Source: an uncultured archaeon
GTDB taxonomy: Archaea > Nanohalarchaeota > Nanosalinia > Nanosalinales > Nanosalinaceae
Assembly (NCBI GenBank): GCA_964421955.1
Contig: CAYQYU010000003.1
Location: 12,377 to 76,376 of the forward strand
Direction of reading: 5' to 3'
Length of the DNA stretch: 64,000 bases
Each line of letters begins with the position of its first letter. Positions within the stretch are counted from its first letter, which is position 1. This document shows positions 11,986 to 63,999 of the stretch, one piece after another. The notes under the pieces are model-generated. The model saw only the letters and a list, made by a program, of their open reading frames with translations, did not search any database and was not told the DNA's origin. The position numbers and the translations under genes were made by a program.

Positions 11986-12036
11986 ATGTCGAAAACCGGA
12001 GATTTTCTTGTCCAGAACAGGGTTGTCCTCGAGTGA
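11986..12036 (+). repeat. Hairpin/mini-ORF connector element (decayed copy; MSKTGDFLVQNRVVLE)
   Basis: GAAAACC-GGA-GATTTTC; ORF starts 1 nt after the upstream stop and its TGA overlaps the GTG at 12033. Confidence 0.55.
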
Positions 12037-52101: not shown

Positions 52102-52109
52102 GTGATAGA

Positions 52110-52169
52110 ATGAGCAAAAATCAAAGATTTTCAGCACTCGCAGAAAACACAGGAGGTGTTTTCGAGTAA
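52110..52169 (+). repeat. Hairpin/mini-ORF connector element (MSKNQRFSALAENTGGVFE)
   Basis: AAAATC/GATTTT and GAAAACAC-AGGAG-GTGTTTTC; own SD AGGTGA; TAATG overlap with rps8. Confidence 0.8.
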
Positions 52170-52566: not shown

Positions 52567-52629
52567 ATGAGCGAAAATCAAAATCAGAGATTTTCTGGTC
52601 ACGCAAAAACTCACGGAGGTGAGTTTTGA
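52567..52629 (+). repeat. Hairpin/mini-ORF connector element (MSENQNQRFSGHAKTHGGEF)
   Basis: AAAATC/GATTTT and AAAACTCAC-GGAG-GTGAGTTTT; stop abuts the rpl6 GTG. Confidence 0.8.
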
Positions 52630-53169
52630 GTGGATATCAAAACCGAGCTACCAGAAGATGTCGAAGCGGAATACGAGGACGGCGTTCTCAGGGTCGAGAA
52701 CAGCAGCCAGGAAGTGGAGAAACGGCTGGAGCACGCACAGATCCATGTCGAGGTCAGTAGCGGCGAAGTCGTTTTCTCGACCGGGAGCACGAAGAAGAAC
52801 ATCCAGAGCATAGTGAACACTTTCCGGAAACACCTAGAAAACATGCTGAAAGGTCTAGAAAGCGACCACGTTTACAGGATGAAAGGCGTGTACGCACACT
52901 TCCCGATGACAATCAAGCAGGAGGGAGACGAAATCCACCTCGAAAATTTCATGGGCGAACGAGCCGACCGGGTAATAGAAGTCATGGAAGGCGTTGACGT
53001 ATCGATCAACGGCGAAGATCTCGAGTTGAGAGGCCCGGACAAGGAGAAAGTCGCGCAGACCGCCGCAAGGATTGAGCAGGCGTGCAGGAAAGGAAACCGC
53101 GACCCAAGGACATTCCAGGACGGAGTATACATAACAGAGGTCGAAGAAGGAGGTGCCGCAAGTGAGTAA
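52630..53169 (+). CDS. rpl6: 50S ribosomal protein L6
   Basis: [23 protein letters not shown]. Confidence 0.96.
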
Positions 53170-53503: not shown

Positions 53504-53553
53504 ATGCTGAAAGCTTTCACTTCGCAGAAGATCAAGAGGTGATCTTCGAGTGA
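53500..53553 (+). repeat. Hairpin/mini-ORF connector element (GTG start; [17 protein letters not shown])
   Basis: TGAAAGCTTTCA palindrome and GAAGATCA-AGAGG-TGATCTTC; GTGA overlaps at both ends. Confidence 0.75.
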
Positions 53554-55183: not shown

Positions 55184-55287
55184 TGACTAAGATGAAACTC
55201 CAGAAGAGTTTCTCACAGAAGATTCCACAGAATCTTCGAATCATAGATCTCCTGGATAACCAGAAACTCGAAGGTGAGTTTCGGTGA
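55183..55287 (+). repeat. Three-hairpin mini-ORF connector element (34 codons)
   Basis: GAAACTC/GAGTTTC twice and GAAGATTC/GAATCTTC; TGATG and GTGA overlaps. Confidence 0.75.
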
Positions 55288-60868: not shown

Positions 60869-61027
60869 GCCGGGGTGACAGAGTCTGGCCGAATGTGCCA
60901 GCCTGGAAAACACCTCTTACCCTCCTTCAGCAGGCTTAGAGGTTCAAGAAGCGAACAGATGTGAGCTTCGTACCAGTCAGCTGGTGGCCCATACCGGGCC
61001 TCCTGGGTTCAAATCCCAGCCCCGGCG
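60869..61027 (+). tRNA. tRNA-Ser(GGA) with a 70-nt intron at 37/38 (60909-60978)
   Basis: GCCGGGG/CCCCGGC acceptor stem, CCAGC/GCTGG anticodon stem, long variable arm, TTCAAAT loop, CTGG/CCAG BHB helix. Confidence 0.92.
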
Positions 61028-61045
61028 CTTTCAGCTCCTCTTCGG

Positions 61046-61176
61046 GATTTGAACTGGTTCAAATCGACGAAAATCGAAGATTTTTCTGGAGGTACAGAAA
61101 CTGCTTTCACAGTTTCGAACCCGACCCCGGCGAACTTTACTAAAGTTCGAGCAAATAGACGGTTGCACCGCAACCG
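61046..61176. repeat. Cluster of five short palindromic hairpins after tRNA-Ser
   Basis: GATTTGAAC/GTTCAAATC, GAAAATC/GATTTTTC, GAAACTG/CAGTTTC, CGAACTTTA/TAAAGTTCG, CGGTTGC/GCAACCG. Confidence 0.7.
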
Positions 61177-61250
61177 ACTGCAACTACCGGCGAAGTTCCT
61201 ACTGGCAAACTTTCCTGAATAATTTTTAACACGTCTCTCCAAGTCTCCTT

Positions 61251-61664
61251 ATGGCGACTGCCCGAGAGCTTATGGATGAGCCTGATTTCATCGATGCGGA
61301 TGCTCCCGTGGAAGAAGTGAAGAAGGAGTTTGAAGGCACCGAAGACACGCTCATAGTGAAGAAAGATGGTAAATTCGCCGGGGAAATCCACGAGAATTCG
61401 CTTCTAAAGCTTCTTATACCGGAGAACCGGCTGGATGAGGAGCGCGTGATCGGCATCCTTGGCCTGTCGTTTGACAGCAGCTATGTTGCAGAGACAGCGG
61501 AAGACCTGATGAATCGGCATGAAATGACAGTTGATCCTGATGAGGAAACAGACGAGATTGCATTCATAATGGACCGGGAAAACGTCAGGGCAATCCCTGT
61601 CGAAGAAAACGGTGAAATAATAGGTGTTATCCACGAGAACCGGTTAATGGAGGAGATAGAGTAG
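61251..61664 (+). CDS. CBS-domain pair protein
   Basis: ARELM...TAEDLM, IPVEENGEIIGVI. Confidence 0.9.
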   Translation: MATARELMDEPDFIDADAPVEEVKKEFEGTEDTLIVKKDGKFAGEIHENSLLKLLIPENRLDEERVIGILGLSFDSSYVAETAEDLMNRHEMTVDPDEETDEIAFIMDRENVRAIPVEENGEIIGVIHENRLMEEIE

Positions 61665-61667
61665 GAT

Positions 61668-62834
61668 ATGGCAGGTATAAGTGCTTCTCTCCTTCTTGAC
61701 CTCGGACTTCTCCTTATGGCTTCCTTTCTTGTCGGGGAGCTTTTTGAAAGACTCGGGCTGGAGTCGATAATCGGGTACATAGTAACCGGTCTCTTGCTGG
61801 GTCCTTCGGTTCTCAACCTGGTACAGCCCGAGACAGTTGTAGGTTTCGGCACGATAGGAGCCACTCTGATACTTTTCCAGGCTGGTCTGCGCGAGGAGAA
61901 TGTGGTGGAAATCTTCCGGCACGAGGAGGGACTTGATCTGGGTCTGGGAGTACTCGTAGGTTCATTCATCTTTATCCTCGCCGCTCTCTTCTTCTTTGGA
62001 GATCGCTTCCTCCCGTACGCAGGTATCCGGGAGTTCGTCTTCATCGCCCTGGCATACGCGGTAGTCGATATTGGAGTCCCCTCAAAGGTGATGTTGAACC
62101 GGGGCATGCTGGAGGAGGAGGTGGGTACATACACCATCAAGTCCTCGGTAATCAACGTTACCGCGGGCCTCGGAGTGCTTACCGTACTCGTACTGATGAC
62201 CTCGACAACTGTCCAGAGTCTCGCGGTGAAAATAGGCGGTATAGCAGGATTCACACTGCTATTCTTCCTGCTCCACGAGTTCGTCCATAAACTGGATAAC
62301 TACGTTATACTGTTTGAAGAGGTAGAGTCCGAGTTCGCCATCACGATCGCCATGCTCCTGTTCCTGGCGTACGCCACAGAGATCATAGGTCTCTCCAGCG
62401 TCCTCGGTGCATTTTTCGCCGGAGTCATAATATCAAGATCCGCCTTCTCCGACTCAAGAGCCTTCCAGGAAAAGATAATGGCAATTGGCGAAGGGTTCTT
62501 CATACCAATTTTCTTCGCCTGGTTCGGCCTCGGACTCCAGATTTTCGGTCCAACCGGCATGCTTGCGAACATAGAGGCCGCCACATTCCTATTCCTGCTT
62601 TCAACGGTCTCAAAGTTCGGAATCGGCTACGTCATCTCAAGGTCCCACGGCTTCAATCCCTCAACTGTTGCATCATCCCTTCTGAGCCTTGACATCGAGA
62701 CCCTGGTCATCCTGCTGATCGGTATTGACCTGGGAATACTCACGGAAGAAATACTCCAGATATTCGCTCCCTCCGTTCTATTCACCACGACCACGATAGT
62801 GGTGCTATATGCTCTGATAGACCGGATGAGATGA
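61668..62834 (+). CDS. Cation:proton antiporter (CPA2 family)
   Basis: IIGYIVTGLLLGP, GLSSVLGAFFAG, FFIPIFF..FG. Confidence 0.92.
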   Translation: MAGISASLLLDLGLLLMASFLVGELFERLGLESIIGYIVTGLLLGPSVLNLVQPETVVGFGTIGATLILFQAGLREENVVEIFRHEEGLDLGLGVLVGSFIFILAALFFFGDRFLPYAGIREFVFIALAYAVVDIGVPSKVMLNRGMLEEEVGTYTIKSSVINVTAGLGVLTVLVLMTSTTVQSLAVKIGGIAGFTLLFFLLHEFVHKLDNYVILFEEVESEFAITIAMLLFLAYATEIIGLSSVLGAFFAGVIISRSAFSDSRAFQEKIMAIGEGFFIPIFFAWFGLGLQIFGPTGMLANIEAATFLFLLSTVSKFGIGYVISRSHGFNPSTVASSLLSLDIETLVILLIGIDLGILTEEILQIFAPSVLFTTTTIVVLYALIDRMR

Positions 62835-62971
62835 TGTACTAAAAAGCTTTCTTCCCCAGCACTATTCCAGAGAACAGATAAGCCCCCTGGGGGTACAGCC
62901 ATCTCAGAAATGAGAAGGCTTACCAGAAAATCCTGTGACAGGATTTTCAAGATACCCGCAGGGATACAAAG

Positions 62972-63106
62972 AGCCCCCTGGGGTAGAGGTCAATCCTACC
63001 AGCTTCTGGACACCGGCTTCCGCAAGGATGTCGGTTCGAGAAGTGAGCTAATACGAACTTCGACGGGAAATGGCTGGTGACACAGGTTCGAATCCTGTGG
63101 GGGCTA
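62972..63106 (+). tRNA. tRNA-Gln(CTG) with a 62-nt intron at 37/38 (63010-63071)
   Basis: AGCCCCC/GGGGGCT with A1-U72, CCAGC/GCTGG, GGTTCGAATCC, TTCT/GGAA BHB helix. Confidence 0.93.
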
Positions 63107-63184
63107 TGCACGTGTCGTGCTGGCTGAGTGTTCAGTAGATTTTCACAATATTGATAAAACTTCGGGTTGCTTAGTTAGAATACC

Positions 63185-63379
63185 ATGAAATGCCAGGTAT
63201 GCGGCAGGACCGAGGAAGAACTTGAGGAAGAGTTCGGTATAGAGTCGCCTATATCGGAGCGCCAGGGAATCGACAAATGTGAGAAGTGTCACCGTGAATA
63301 CCAGAGAGAAACCAGCGGTGAAAAGACTGACCAGGAAGAAATGGAGTCGAAGAACTGGAAAGACGCTATTACGGCCTGA
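63185..63379 (+). CDS. Small zinc-finger protein
   Basis: CQVCG ... CEKC. Confidence 0.7.
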   Translation: MKCQVCGRTEEELEEEFGIESPISERQGIDKCEKCHREYQRETSGEKTDQEEMESKNWKDAITA

Positions 63380-63412
63380 ATAATTTATCCCCAAAGTTCT
63401 AATCGAGGACAT

Positions 63413-63814
63413 ATGCCCACGATAGCTGCGAATCTCGTGACCAGGAATGGAACTATCCTTATGCTCTACCGTTCTGACAAGAACTACTGGGAACTACCTG
63501 CCGGAAAAATCGAGAAGGGAGAGAACGCCAGGGAAGCGGCAAAGAGAGAGGCCAGGGAGGAAATAGGTGTAGAAGTCAAGATCATAGAAGAATGGCAACC
63601 TTTCCAGATAAGCTTTGATCACGAAGGACGAAATTTTTCCACTAGAGGATTTATGTCAGAGATCGCTGAAGGCAAACCCGAAATACAGGAGAAGCAGTTC
63701 TCAAAACTGGACTGGTTCGGAACCTCTGAAATCGAAGAACTCGATCTCGCACCCAATCTTGAGATGATTGAAGAAGAGCTGAAACAACTCCTGAAACAAG
63801 AAACGGTTTCTTAA
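63413..63814 (+). CDS. NUDIX hydrolase
   Basis: PAGKIEKGENAREAAKREAREEIG Nudix box. Confidence 0.93.
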   Translation: MPTIAANLVTRNGTILMLYRSDKNYWELPAGKIEKGENAREAAKREAREEIGVEVKIIEEWQPFQISFDHEGRNFSTRGFMSEIAEGKPEIQEKQFSKLDWFGTSEIEELDLAPNLEMIEEELKQLLKQETVS

Positions 63815-63857
63815 GCTTTCAGAAGATTAAACTCGTTAGACACAGGAGGAAACAGAA

Positions 63858-63999
63858 AGCCCCCTGGTCTAGTGGTCAATGATAGCGGCCTTTGGAACCT
63901 CACGTTCTCGAATTTTTGGTGAGAGAACAGGGACCGAGAAGAGCTCCGCTCTTCGATCGAAGATAGCCGCTGACCGAGGTTCGAATCCTCGGGGGGCTA
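63858..63999 (+). tRNA. tRNA-Gln(TTG) with a 69-nt intron at 37/38 (63896-63964)
   Basis: AGCCCCC/GGGGGCT, GCGGC/GCCGC, GGTTCGAATCC, CTTT/GAAG BHB helix. Confidence 0.93.

Follow-up and report, generated by a model that had tools for sequence, protein, structure and literature searches.

Three tRNA genes at one end of a 64,000-nucleotide (nt) stretch from an uncultured nanohaloarchaeon, encoding tRNA-Ser(GGA), tRNA-Gln(CTG) and tRNA-Gln(TTG), are each interrupted by an intron that contains two consecutive hairpins. The three introns are probably members of a family of structured bulge-helix-bulge (BHB) introns inserted at position 37/38. The family is spread over many, but not all, Nanohaloarchaeota genomes, and the tRNA species that carry it differ between genomes. 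As a family of structured tRNA introns it is real, statistically solid and, apparently, undescribed; a kink-junction at its core is plausible, judging from the bases that surround the second hairpin.

The genome examined comprises 922,649 bases in 27 contigs (cited below as C1, C2 and so on), is 98.8% complete and belongs to Nanohaloarchaeota, its SecY protein sharing 65-81% identity with SecY of Nanohaloarchaea or Nanohalarchaeota; the stretch analysed, hereafter the window, corresponds to C3:12377-76376. The tRNA and intron calls are based on ARAGORN with the intron mode on. In default mode the program called no tRNA in the window, and at the gathering score Rfam matched no family there besides tRNA, the sole match being tRNA-Gln(TTG) (RF00005, 45.7 bits). 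The whole-genome ARAGORN run, for which this genome alone was used, called 40 tRNA genes, of which 28 are interrupted by an intron. The call 'Ser-AGA' (C1:9448-9669, 126-nt intron) appears spurious, and several anticodon labels are wrong because those genes contain a second intron. Two covariance models were built. R1 represents the whole two-hairpin module and was trained on 10 simple introns of this genome, and R2 represents the second hairpin and was trained on 26 spacer copies, none of them from tRNA introns. Copies of the second hairpin were also counted with a descriptor (AGAA, at least 4 further pairs, a loop of 3-7 nt and TTCG), with 20 dinucleotide shuffles as controls. Coding sequence, 89% of the genome, was assigned by a crude codon-usage gene caller.

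The tRNA-Ser(GGA) gene (60869-61028; all three genes are on the plus strand) contains a canonical intron of 70 nt at 60909-60978, which R1 recognizes with 46.3 bits (E = 7.7e-10). Hairpin 1 spans approximately 60913-60942, the linker TTC occupies 60943-60945, and hairpin 2 with its flanks extends over 60946-60971; this hairpin 2 has the long-loop form, an internal tandem G.A and AA..GT flanks. The canonical 62-nt intron of tRNA-Gln(CTG) (gene 62972-63106, intron 63010-63071; R1 52.7 bits, E = 1.8e-11) comprises hairpin 1 at 63012-63035, the linker TTC at 63035-63037, and hairpin 2 with GA..GA flanks at 63038-63063. The corresponding elements of the canonical 69-nt intron of tRNA-Gln(TTG) (gene 63858-63999, intron 63896-63964; R1 58.8 bits, E = 4.5e-13) are hairpin 1 at 63898-63932, the linker ACC at 63933-63935, and hairpin 2, again with GA..GA flanks, at 63936-63956. 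An earlier note on this DNA, referred to here as the original prediction, had described introns of 62-70 nt at 37/38 in all three tRNAs, and the ARAGORN lengths agree with it. The strings it quoted are all present in the window, and the GA/GA flanks it reported for both Gln introns were confirmed, the Ser intron having AA/GT instead.

The ARAGORN positions and a reading of the anticodon stems place the insertion point after nucleotide 37 in all three tRNAs. By reading, nucleotides 32-35 pair in each case with the four intron bases that precede the last two intron bases. The resulting central 4-bp splice helix is CTGG/CCAG in Ser, TTCT/GGAA in Gln(CTG) and CTTT/GAAG in Gln(TTG), the latter two with one G.U pair each, and it is flanked in every intron by two 3-nt bulges that hold the predicted splice sites. 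Hairpin 1 starts 1-2 nt past the 5' bulge, and the linker and hairpin 2 separate the 3' strand of hairpin 1 from the central helix. The minimum-free-energy fold of the Ser intron recovers both hairpins together with the central splice helix; that of the Gln(TTG) intron recovers both hairpins, with the central helix missing. A profile search of the genome located the endonuclease EndA at one locus, as a 194-aa open frame (PF01974, 96.8 bits), and L7Ae is encoded by one gene.

The module recurs well beyond the window. At E <= 1.3e-6, R1 yielded 15 matches in this genome, distributed over 14 tRNA genes and one degenerate-copy site. Ten are the model's own training introns; the five others are Arg-TCG, in which hairpin 1 is present as a tandem duplicate, Leu-TAA, Arg-CCT, Leu-GAG and a degenerate copy of a tRNA-Arg 3' end on C17. 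Many introns share a common plan in which a short linker joins hairpin 1 to hairpin 2, the latter of the form N-A-G-[stem-loop-stem]-C-G-N and followed by a few bases that pair with the anticodon loop, and minimum-free-energy folds reproduce the two-hairpin plan for most of the introns of this genome that bear it. Weaker two-hairpin R1 matches lie outside tRNAs, at C8:2320-2375 after a protein gene, at C12:6676-6740 immediately ahead of the promoter region of tRNA-Arg(TCT), and on the minus strand at C20:77-134, where a GA..GA-flanked module is situated ~45 nt upstream of the 5' end of the 16S rRNA (contig C20 terminates within the 16S gene).

R1 matched 29 of 40 related genomes at E <= 1e-3, and 37 of the 69 other genomes of the phylum at E <= 1e-5; no other genome among these 69 has more than 9 matches, compared with the 15 found here. 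The best match lies inside an ARAGORN-called, intron-bearing tRNA in 24 of the 29 matched relatives, and at least one of the five remaining best matches (L081) is a two-intron Gln(TTG) gene that ARAGORN missed. The tRNA identities among these best matches are Arg, Ser, Gln, Pro, Cys, Ala, Leu, Lys, Trp and Gly. Pro(TGG), Ser(TGA), Ser(CGA), Leu(TAG) and Cys, all intronless in this genome, have the module in some relatives, and relative G009 has kept the Ser(GGA)-Gln(CTG)-Gln(TTG) cluster with an intronless Gln(CTG). Rfam tRNA matches longer than 95 nt account for 1 of 35, 7 of 28, 12 of 30 and 15 of 30 in complete relatives, in a search that misses many intron-bearing genes and lists 24 tRNAs for this genome.

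The structure of the module was examined in an alignment of 48 instances, 17 from this genome and 31 from relatives. In this model-fitted alignment of related sequences, 88.7% of the aligned helix cells are paired, compared with 72.9% in shuffles, and both sides change in 14 of the 17 helix pairs; none of 500 shuffles reached the observed values. When the partners were shifted by 1-3 columns as slid controls, pairing fell to 37-65%. Many different pair types are plainly visible in the upper stems of the alignment rows. By definition, a kink-turn has a Watson-Crick helix followed by a 3-nt bulge and by G.A and A.G pairs. Hairpin 1 is closed by C-G in 44 of 47 modules and by U-G in the other 3, and the linker to hairpin 2 is exactly 3 nt in all 48. 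The first base past the linker (position 1b) is G in 34 and A in 10 of the 48, and the second (2b) is invariably A. The first pair of hairpin 2 is G-C in every module, the first base past its stem (2n) is G in 47 of 48, and the full G/A combination at 1b/1n is present in 33 of 48. Past the A at 1n, 1-2 nt lead into the strand that pairs with the anticodon loop, which places a third helix on the non-bulged strand. The module flanks and linker are the sequence signature of a putative kink-turn with the topology of a three-way k-junction. According to PMC10573300, a k-junction has an extra helix on the non-bulged strand, its C helix and third helix are coaxial, and its NC helix is set at an acute angle.

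Hairpin 2 occurs throughout the genome. The descriptor identified 49 copies, whereas the shuffles contained 6.45 on average and at most 12, and other closing combinations gave 8-19 copies, the reverse complement of the same element excepted. The bare pattern AGAAG-N(3-20)-CTTCG is unenriched in the window (8 found, 6.0 expected). Compensatory stem variants comprise GAAAATC/GATTTTC, GAAGATC/GATCTTC, GAAACTC/GAGTTTC and GAAGAGC/GCTCTTC. R2 returned 47 matches genome-wide at E <= 1, 26 of which are its training members; 44 lie outside called coding sequence and 3 inside. Nine of the 47 are in stable-RNA genes (seven sense copies in tRNA introns, one sense copy in RNase P RNA, and one antisense copy in the Ile-GAT intron, 25.0 bits), ten are within 150 nt of such a gene, and 25 are in other intergenic DNA. 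Spacer copies are located in the leaders and trailers of tRNAs, in insertions of RNase P RNA, in the 16S leader and between genes of the ribosomal-protein operon.

The presence of a common hairpin in introns and spacers is supported by the performance of R2 on intron hairpins that it had not seen, which score 30.0 (Lys-CTT), 28.4 (Met), 28.0 (Arg-TCG), 25.3 (Gly), 25.2 (Leu-GAG), 23.3 (Val) and 18.5 bits (Leu-TAA). Within the window, Gln(TTG) is a clear match (21.4 bits, E = 0.006 for the window). The other two introns have a longer variant of hairpin 2, with a loop of 4-6 nt and an internal tandem G.A, which leaves them at background: 13.5 bits and E = 0.51 for Ser(GGA), 9.9 bits and E = 3.9 for Gln(CTG). 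The original prediction implied that a model of the intergenic elements would score introns above background and that other tRNA introns would carry the motif. The latter is borne out by the Lys-CTT, Met, Arg-TCG, Gly, Leu-GAG and Val introns; the former holds for the unseen intron hairpins, and for just one of the three introns that prompted it. Spacer copies are found in both orientations relative to the flanking genes, frequently as adjacent minus/plus pairs, and their base at 1b is C in 16, A in 5 and G in 5 of 26. With C at 1b in most of them, the first G.A pair cannot form there. The kink-turn-like G.A pairs of the original prediction thus stand for the introns and fail for most spacer copies. 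Intron hairpin 1, with its pyrimidine-rich 5' arm, and the left hairpin of the spacer pairs are of different sequence classes, and R1 has no match at E <= 10 to the two connectors at 53526-53548 and 55217-55238, the common part being hairpin 2 only. The AGAAG..CTTCG stem reported in these mRNA connectors does exist, and it is shared with the introns; the description of introns and connectors as one two-hairpin architecture fits only loosely, since hairpin 1 differs. As a whole, the earlier interpretation is partly supported. From sequence we infer that introns and spacers may share a kink-turn and a binding protein, and that the element may be mobile.

Other copies in the window accompany these genes and the ribosomal-protein operon. 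A minus/plus pair (61062-61093 minus, 61090-61123 plus; R2 17.3 and 25.6 bits) lies downstream of tRNA-Ser(GGA), and a weak family-like hairpin with an A..A rather than A..G closure (62919-62955, plus; 15.6 bits, E = 0.15) is located ~20 nt upstream of tRNA-Gln(CTG). A single intergenic hairpin at 11990-12008 on the minus strand (24.0 bits, a training member) is antisense to both neighbouring genes. The ribosomal-protein operon contains the hairpin at 53526-53548 (plus; 25.9 bits, a training member), three hairpins between two ribosomal-protein genes (55187-55219 minus, 55217-55238 plus and 55262-55283 plus), and two further pairs at 52109-52139 (minus) and 52142-52164 (plus), with 14.2 and 25.7 bits, and at 52572-52596 (minus) and 52599-52634 (plus), with 25.2 and 17.2 bits. 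In the hairpin at 53526-53548 the Shine-Dalgarno-like sequence AGAGGTGATC occupies the loop and 3' arm, and a GTG start follows 1 nt after the hairpin end; the hairpin at 55262-55283 has GGTGA in its loop. Four copies in the operon have GGAGGTG or GGTGA in the loop and a stem that ends 0-4 nt before a start codon; the Shine-Dalgarno sequence is within the loop and 3' arm at 52142-52164, 53526-53548 and 55262-55283. Similar hairpins occur upstream of SecY in some relatives (e.g. L007, L008, L017, L022, L031 and L041). The overlap suggests that the operon hairpins may be structured ribosome-binding sites. A transcription-terminator reading of the spacer hairpins fits poorly, because several copies are inside one ribosomal-protein operon, directly on start codons. 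As a separate candidate, the Haloferax 'AGATC' termination motif was considered and rejected; its resemblance to the GATC of some stems is loose, and in the available text of PMC7237163 it is placed downstream of 3' ends in coding regions.

Elsewhere in the genome, the RNase P RNA (C12:6077-6479; L123 178-580) scores 53.1 bits with RF00373, below the gathering score of 84. It is ~115 nt longer than the model, and its two large insertions hold family hairpins (C12 6145-6163 and 6385-6429). In tRNA-Lys(CTT) (C1:103737-103800; L048 237-300) and tRNA-Arg(CCT) (C17:1855-1990; L067) the gene is followed by a family hairpin and then by a second copy of its own 3' end, ~26 nt long for Lys, an arrangement that resembles an integration scar or a local duplication.

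A collection of 185,579 species contained the exact 19-mer of the commonest hairpin variant in 41 stretches, compared with approximately 4 estimated by chance. Twenty-six of these are in Nanohaloarchaeota-type records, and the flanks place 14 of the 26 in tRNA introns. Another 14 stretches are from two Methanofollis genomes and comprise 17 copies, all of them outside tRNAs and some arranged in tandem with a period of 42 nt, and one is from an uncultured bacterium; viral contigs gave no match to the 19-mer. The occurrence of the hairpin as an independent repeat in a methanogen that is unrelated favours it as an element of its own that later became part of the intron module. The Methanofollis copies (L134-L165, two metagenome-assembled genomes) have conserved flanks, ..GCGAGCATG-hairpin-CTGTGCGAG, and compensatory stem variants too, and Rfam matched no family at the hairpins of these loci. 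A scan with an A/T-rich variant returned mostly A/T-rich bacteria, in about the number estimated by chance, and was uninformative. Some metagenome-assembled genomes of A/T-rich bacteria (L168-L242; one Bacillota and one Clostridioides record) contain many copies of AGAAAATCTNNGATTTTCG, which is probably a separate, unrelated hairpin repeat.

Introns of different tRNA identities were compared with one another. Over the whole intron, the best identity between isotypes is 0.77 (Lys-TTT/Thr-TGT), compared with 0.62-0.68 for shuffled introns. The recently transposed, Thermoproteales-type introns are defined by a cross-isotype identity of at least 80%, and clustering of whole introns at 80% identity gave no cross-isotype family; the only cluster contains Ala-GGC and Ala-TGC, which are of the same isotype. 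Core identity is higher, at 0.79 for Thr-TGT/Lys-TTT and for Arg-TCG/Leu-TAA, 0.83 between Arg-TCG of this genome and Arg-GCG of another genus, and 0.84-0.86 to the extra copy on C17. Because these tRNA identities have no recent common ancestry and their introns share primary sequence, the pattern points to introns that were copied between tRNA genes, then diverged and were repeatedly lost.

Other intron arrangements are present in the same genome. A second intron module, CTGGTTACGCTCAGT ... CACGCAAT, occurs in Arg(GCG) (C7:3300-3450), Asn(GTT) (C12:20819-20973) and Thr(GGT) (C18:10533-10795), where it is split by a long insertion in a 190-nt intron, and a related GCGTGTTACG(C/G)TACGC is found in the introns of Trp (C2:49960-50136) and Gly(TCC) (C6:61863-61995). 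The genes at C1:140740-140899, C15:16301-16527 and C17:5064-5251, which ARAGORN labels Arg-CCG, Glu-TTC and Gln-CTG, resemble Leu(CAA), Leu(TAA) and Gly(GCC), and each has an additional intron in the D-arm region; non-canonical introns thus coexist with the single 194-aa EndA.

We propose the following arrangement for the precursor tRNA. The anticodon loop and the intron's 3' end would form the 4-bp helix of the splice motif, and a three-way junction would take the place of the outer helix of an ordinary intron. Hairpin 1 would extend the splice helix, and hairpin 2 would be joined to it after exactly 3 unpaired nt and bracketed by G-A/G-A. Mapped onto a k-junction, hairpin 1 would correspond to the C helix, the splice helix to the third helix and hairpin 2 to the NC helix. 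The kink would fold hairpin 2 back such that hairpin 1 stacks coaxially on the splice helix, restoring ordinary helix-bulge-helix geometry, and a homotetramer-type endonuclease would, at the 5' splice site, still encounter a normal bulge. Hairpin 2 may itself be a copy of the short A-GAAG...CTTC-G hairpin, with its A.G closing mismatch, that is repeated in the untranslated spacers of the genome, and the intron module would have been copied among tRNA genes of different identity with repeated gain or loss. The kinked fold is a tentative element of this scheme, somewhat less than evenly likely, and the part that the kink may play in splicing, its putative protein partner and the presumed route of copying are deductions from base patterns.

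Several observations weigh against the proposed structure and its history. The alignment was fitted to the model and its sequences are related, so that the covariation figures lean toward structure, and the 3-nt linker count derives from this alignment as well. Full GA/GA is present in just 9 of the 17 modules of this genome, the Ser(GGA) intron of the window being AA/GT, and the minimum-free-energy fold of Gln(CTG) departs from the drawn structure and is without the central helix. A further 11-12 introns of this genome are without the module. The k-junctions assayed in the available text of PMC10573300 were not folded by L7Ae; a Watson-Crick 3b.3n pair in standard k-turns predicts folding upon protein binding only (PMC4382518), and for the module RNA these two published rules, as far as the available texts give them, conflict. 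The modest identity of whole introns suggests that copying is old or that the likeness is partly convergent. Most spacer hairpins are without G at 1b and they occur in both orientations, and a single mechanism shared with the introns is not established by them. Splicing, circular introns and the junction fold are predictions from sequence.

The same data admit other explanations. Hairpin 2 could be a selfish or neutral palindromic repeat, REP-like or similar to a miniature mobile element, that inserts wherever DNA can be spared and of which one copy entered an ancestral intron; its flanks would then be incidental and without a role in splicing. Its genome-wide distribution, the mixture of approximately 15 sense and 11 antisense copies among intergenic copies between co-directional genes, the frequent adjacent minus/plus pairs, the 17 exact 19-mers outside tRNAs, partly in tandem arrays, in Methanofollis, and the loose tracking of intron load by hairpin counts across five relatives are all as expected of such a repeat. 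However, intron copies keep one position, the 3-nt linker and the sense strand (13 of the 14 detected by R2), their G and A flanks are far better conserved than those of spacer copies, and the 19-mer is absent from viral contigs. No Y1/RAYT-type transposase was found in the 98.8% complete genome, and a REP/RAYT element was rejected: PF01797 (Y1, IS200/IS605-like) had no match here, the control being positive in 6 of 14 reference genomes. We regard this explanation as somewhat unlikely. A GA-flanked hairpin could also be the site for L7Ae or a relative of it, so that introns, RNase P RNA, rRNA leader and operon spacers would be one set of bound RNAs, the binding serving folding, protection or feedback control. 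L7Ae is encoded, the introns have the kink-turn signature, 19 of the 47 R2 matches are located in, or at most 150 nt from, a tRNA, the RNase P RNA or the 5' end of 16S, and the invariant Watson-Crick 3b.3n pair belongs, in the standard k-turns of PMC4382518, to those that fold on protein binding only. Set against this are the behaviour of the k-junctions assayed with L7Ae in the available text of PMC10573300 and the prevalence of C at 1b in spacer copies, which breaks the k-turn-defining G.A pair; the binding site itself is a prediction. A bound RNA set of this kind is unlikely.

The likeness between introns could instead have arisen by convergence, unrelated introns sharing a shape that the endonuclease of this lineage demands. 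Whole-intron identity is indeed little above that of shuffled controls, and at least two sequence types of hairpin 1 exist (CCTCAAGTYCTC.. and CACCGSCTTCTC..). However, the primary sequence of hairpin 1, linker and hairpin 2 recurs across isotypes and genera, with core identities of 0.79-0.86 and R1 E values down to 1e-13, and other introns of this genome have very different shapes and still have canonical sites placed by ARAGORN, so the enzyme does not demand the two-hairpin shape; convergence as the whole account is highly improbable. At the other extreme, the module could be a mobile RNA. The excised, probably circular, intron would fold as a k-junction and be reinserted at sites resembling the splice motif, by the endonuclease and ligase acting in reverse or by another route at the DNA level, seeding introns as well as the free-standing copies in spacers, RNase P RNA and rRNA leader, and hairpin 2 would also have crossed into Methanofollis. 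We consider such mobility distinctly improbable. A box C/D guide RNA is housed in the tRNA-Trp intron of Euryarchaeota, and the window introns might be guides of the same type. C/D-like boxes are indeed present in the Trp and Met introns of this genome, and the Met intron also has the family hairpin; TGATGA and CTGA are absent from all three window introns, and this explanation is hardly credible for them. The C/D-like strings, GATGAGG and GATGATTA, are in tRNA-Met (C6:15456-15630, 101-nt intron) and tRNA-Trp (C2:49960-50136, 103-nt intron), and in the Met intron the GA-flanked family hairpin sits between the two halves.

The preferred reading, a family of structured BHB introns, has both familiar and unfamiliar features. 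The position after nucleotide 37, the 4-bp helix with two 3-nt bulges and the single EndA gene are those of canonical archaeal BHB introns. Unlike these, the family has a conserved three-way junction in place of the outer helix and a second hairpin opposite the 5' splice site, and introns interrupt most tRNA genes of this genome and are long, at 60-130 nt. As in the tRNA-Trp intron of Euryarchaeota, a k-turn-type element, predicted here, is housed in a tRNA intron; unlike that intron, the three window introns contain neither C/D boxes nor guide sequences. Bacterial REP/BIME elements are similar in being short imperfect palindromes with one orienting mismatch, tens of intergenic copies and frequent inverted pairs, and differ from this archaeal repeat, for which no RAYT/Y1 was found, which has a fixed sense orientation in introns and which is also found in RNase P RNA. 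The 3-nt bulge, the A.G pair, in 33 of 48 modules also the G.A pair, the Watson-Crick closure of the C helix and the extra helix on the non-bulged strand are shared with k-turns and k-junctions as described by the Lilley laboratory in PMC10573300 and PMC4382518. The known k-junctions in the available text of these papers come from TPP riboswitches and DUF-3268 RNA, and none from an intron. In the present module, the strand that links the third helix with the C helix would contain the four unpaired nt of the splice site, a third of the module copies are without G.A at 1b.1n, and the fold is predicted.

Thermoproteales are one lineage with clear families of similar introns in unrelated tRNAs (PMC4090602; 10.64898/2026.10.13.758758), attributed to intron transposition (Fujishima et al. 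2010, as cited in PMC4090602). A 2026 preprint used them as a positive control and, in its available text, reported almost no such families in Asgard archaea (10.64898/2026.10.13.758758). The present introns resemble the Thermoproteales families in being similar across tRNA identities and patchy among close relatives. In contrast to them, they are from Nanohaloarchaeota, are mostly at canonical positions, have lower identity (at most 0.77 for the whole intron), and have a covarying conserved core that is partly common to an intergenic repeat. According to Kaneta et al. 2018 (PMC5829648), alpha4-type endonucleases that have an additional 'L3' loop accompany more disrupted tRNA genes in DPANN; tRNAs were predicted there for one nanohaloarchaeon, and intron structure is not described in the available text. 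A full-text search, with subscription journals and supplements outside its scope, found no publication on the two-hairpin intron family or the hairpin repeat.

How archaeal tRNA genes gain introns is a standing question, and Nanohaloarchaeota would be a second, independent lineage, besides Thermoproteales, in which to address it. Their genomes are small and several are complete, the intron load within one family ranges from almost none to most tRNA genes, and the conserved core can be modelled and searched. Cultivated members of Nanohaloarchaeota exist. If a true k-junction is formed opposite the splice site, it would be a new biological setting for this motif and a testable case of a strict endonuclease accommodating a large insertion. 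The common hairpin ties the evolution of these introns to a genome-wide non-coding repeat.

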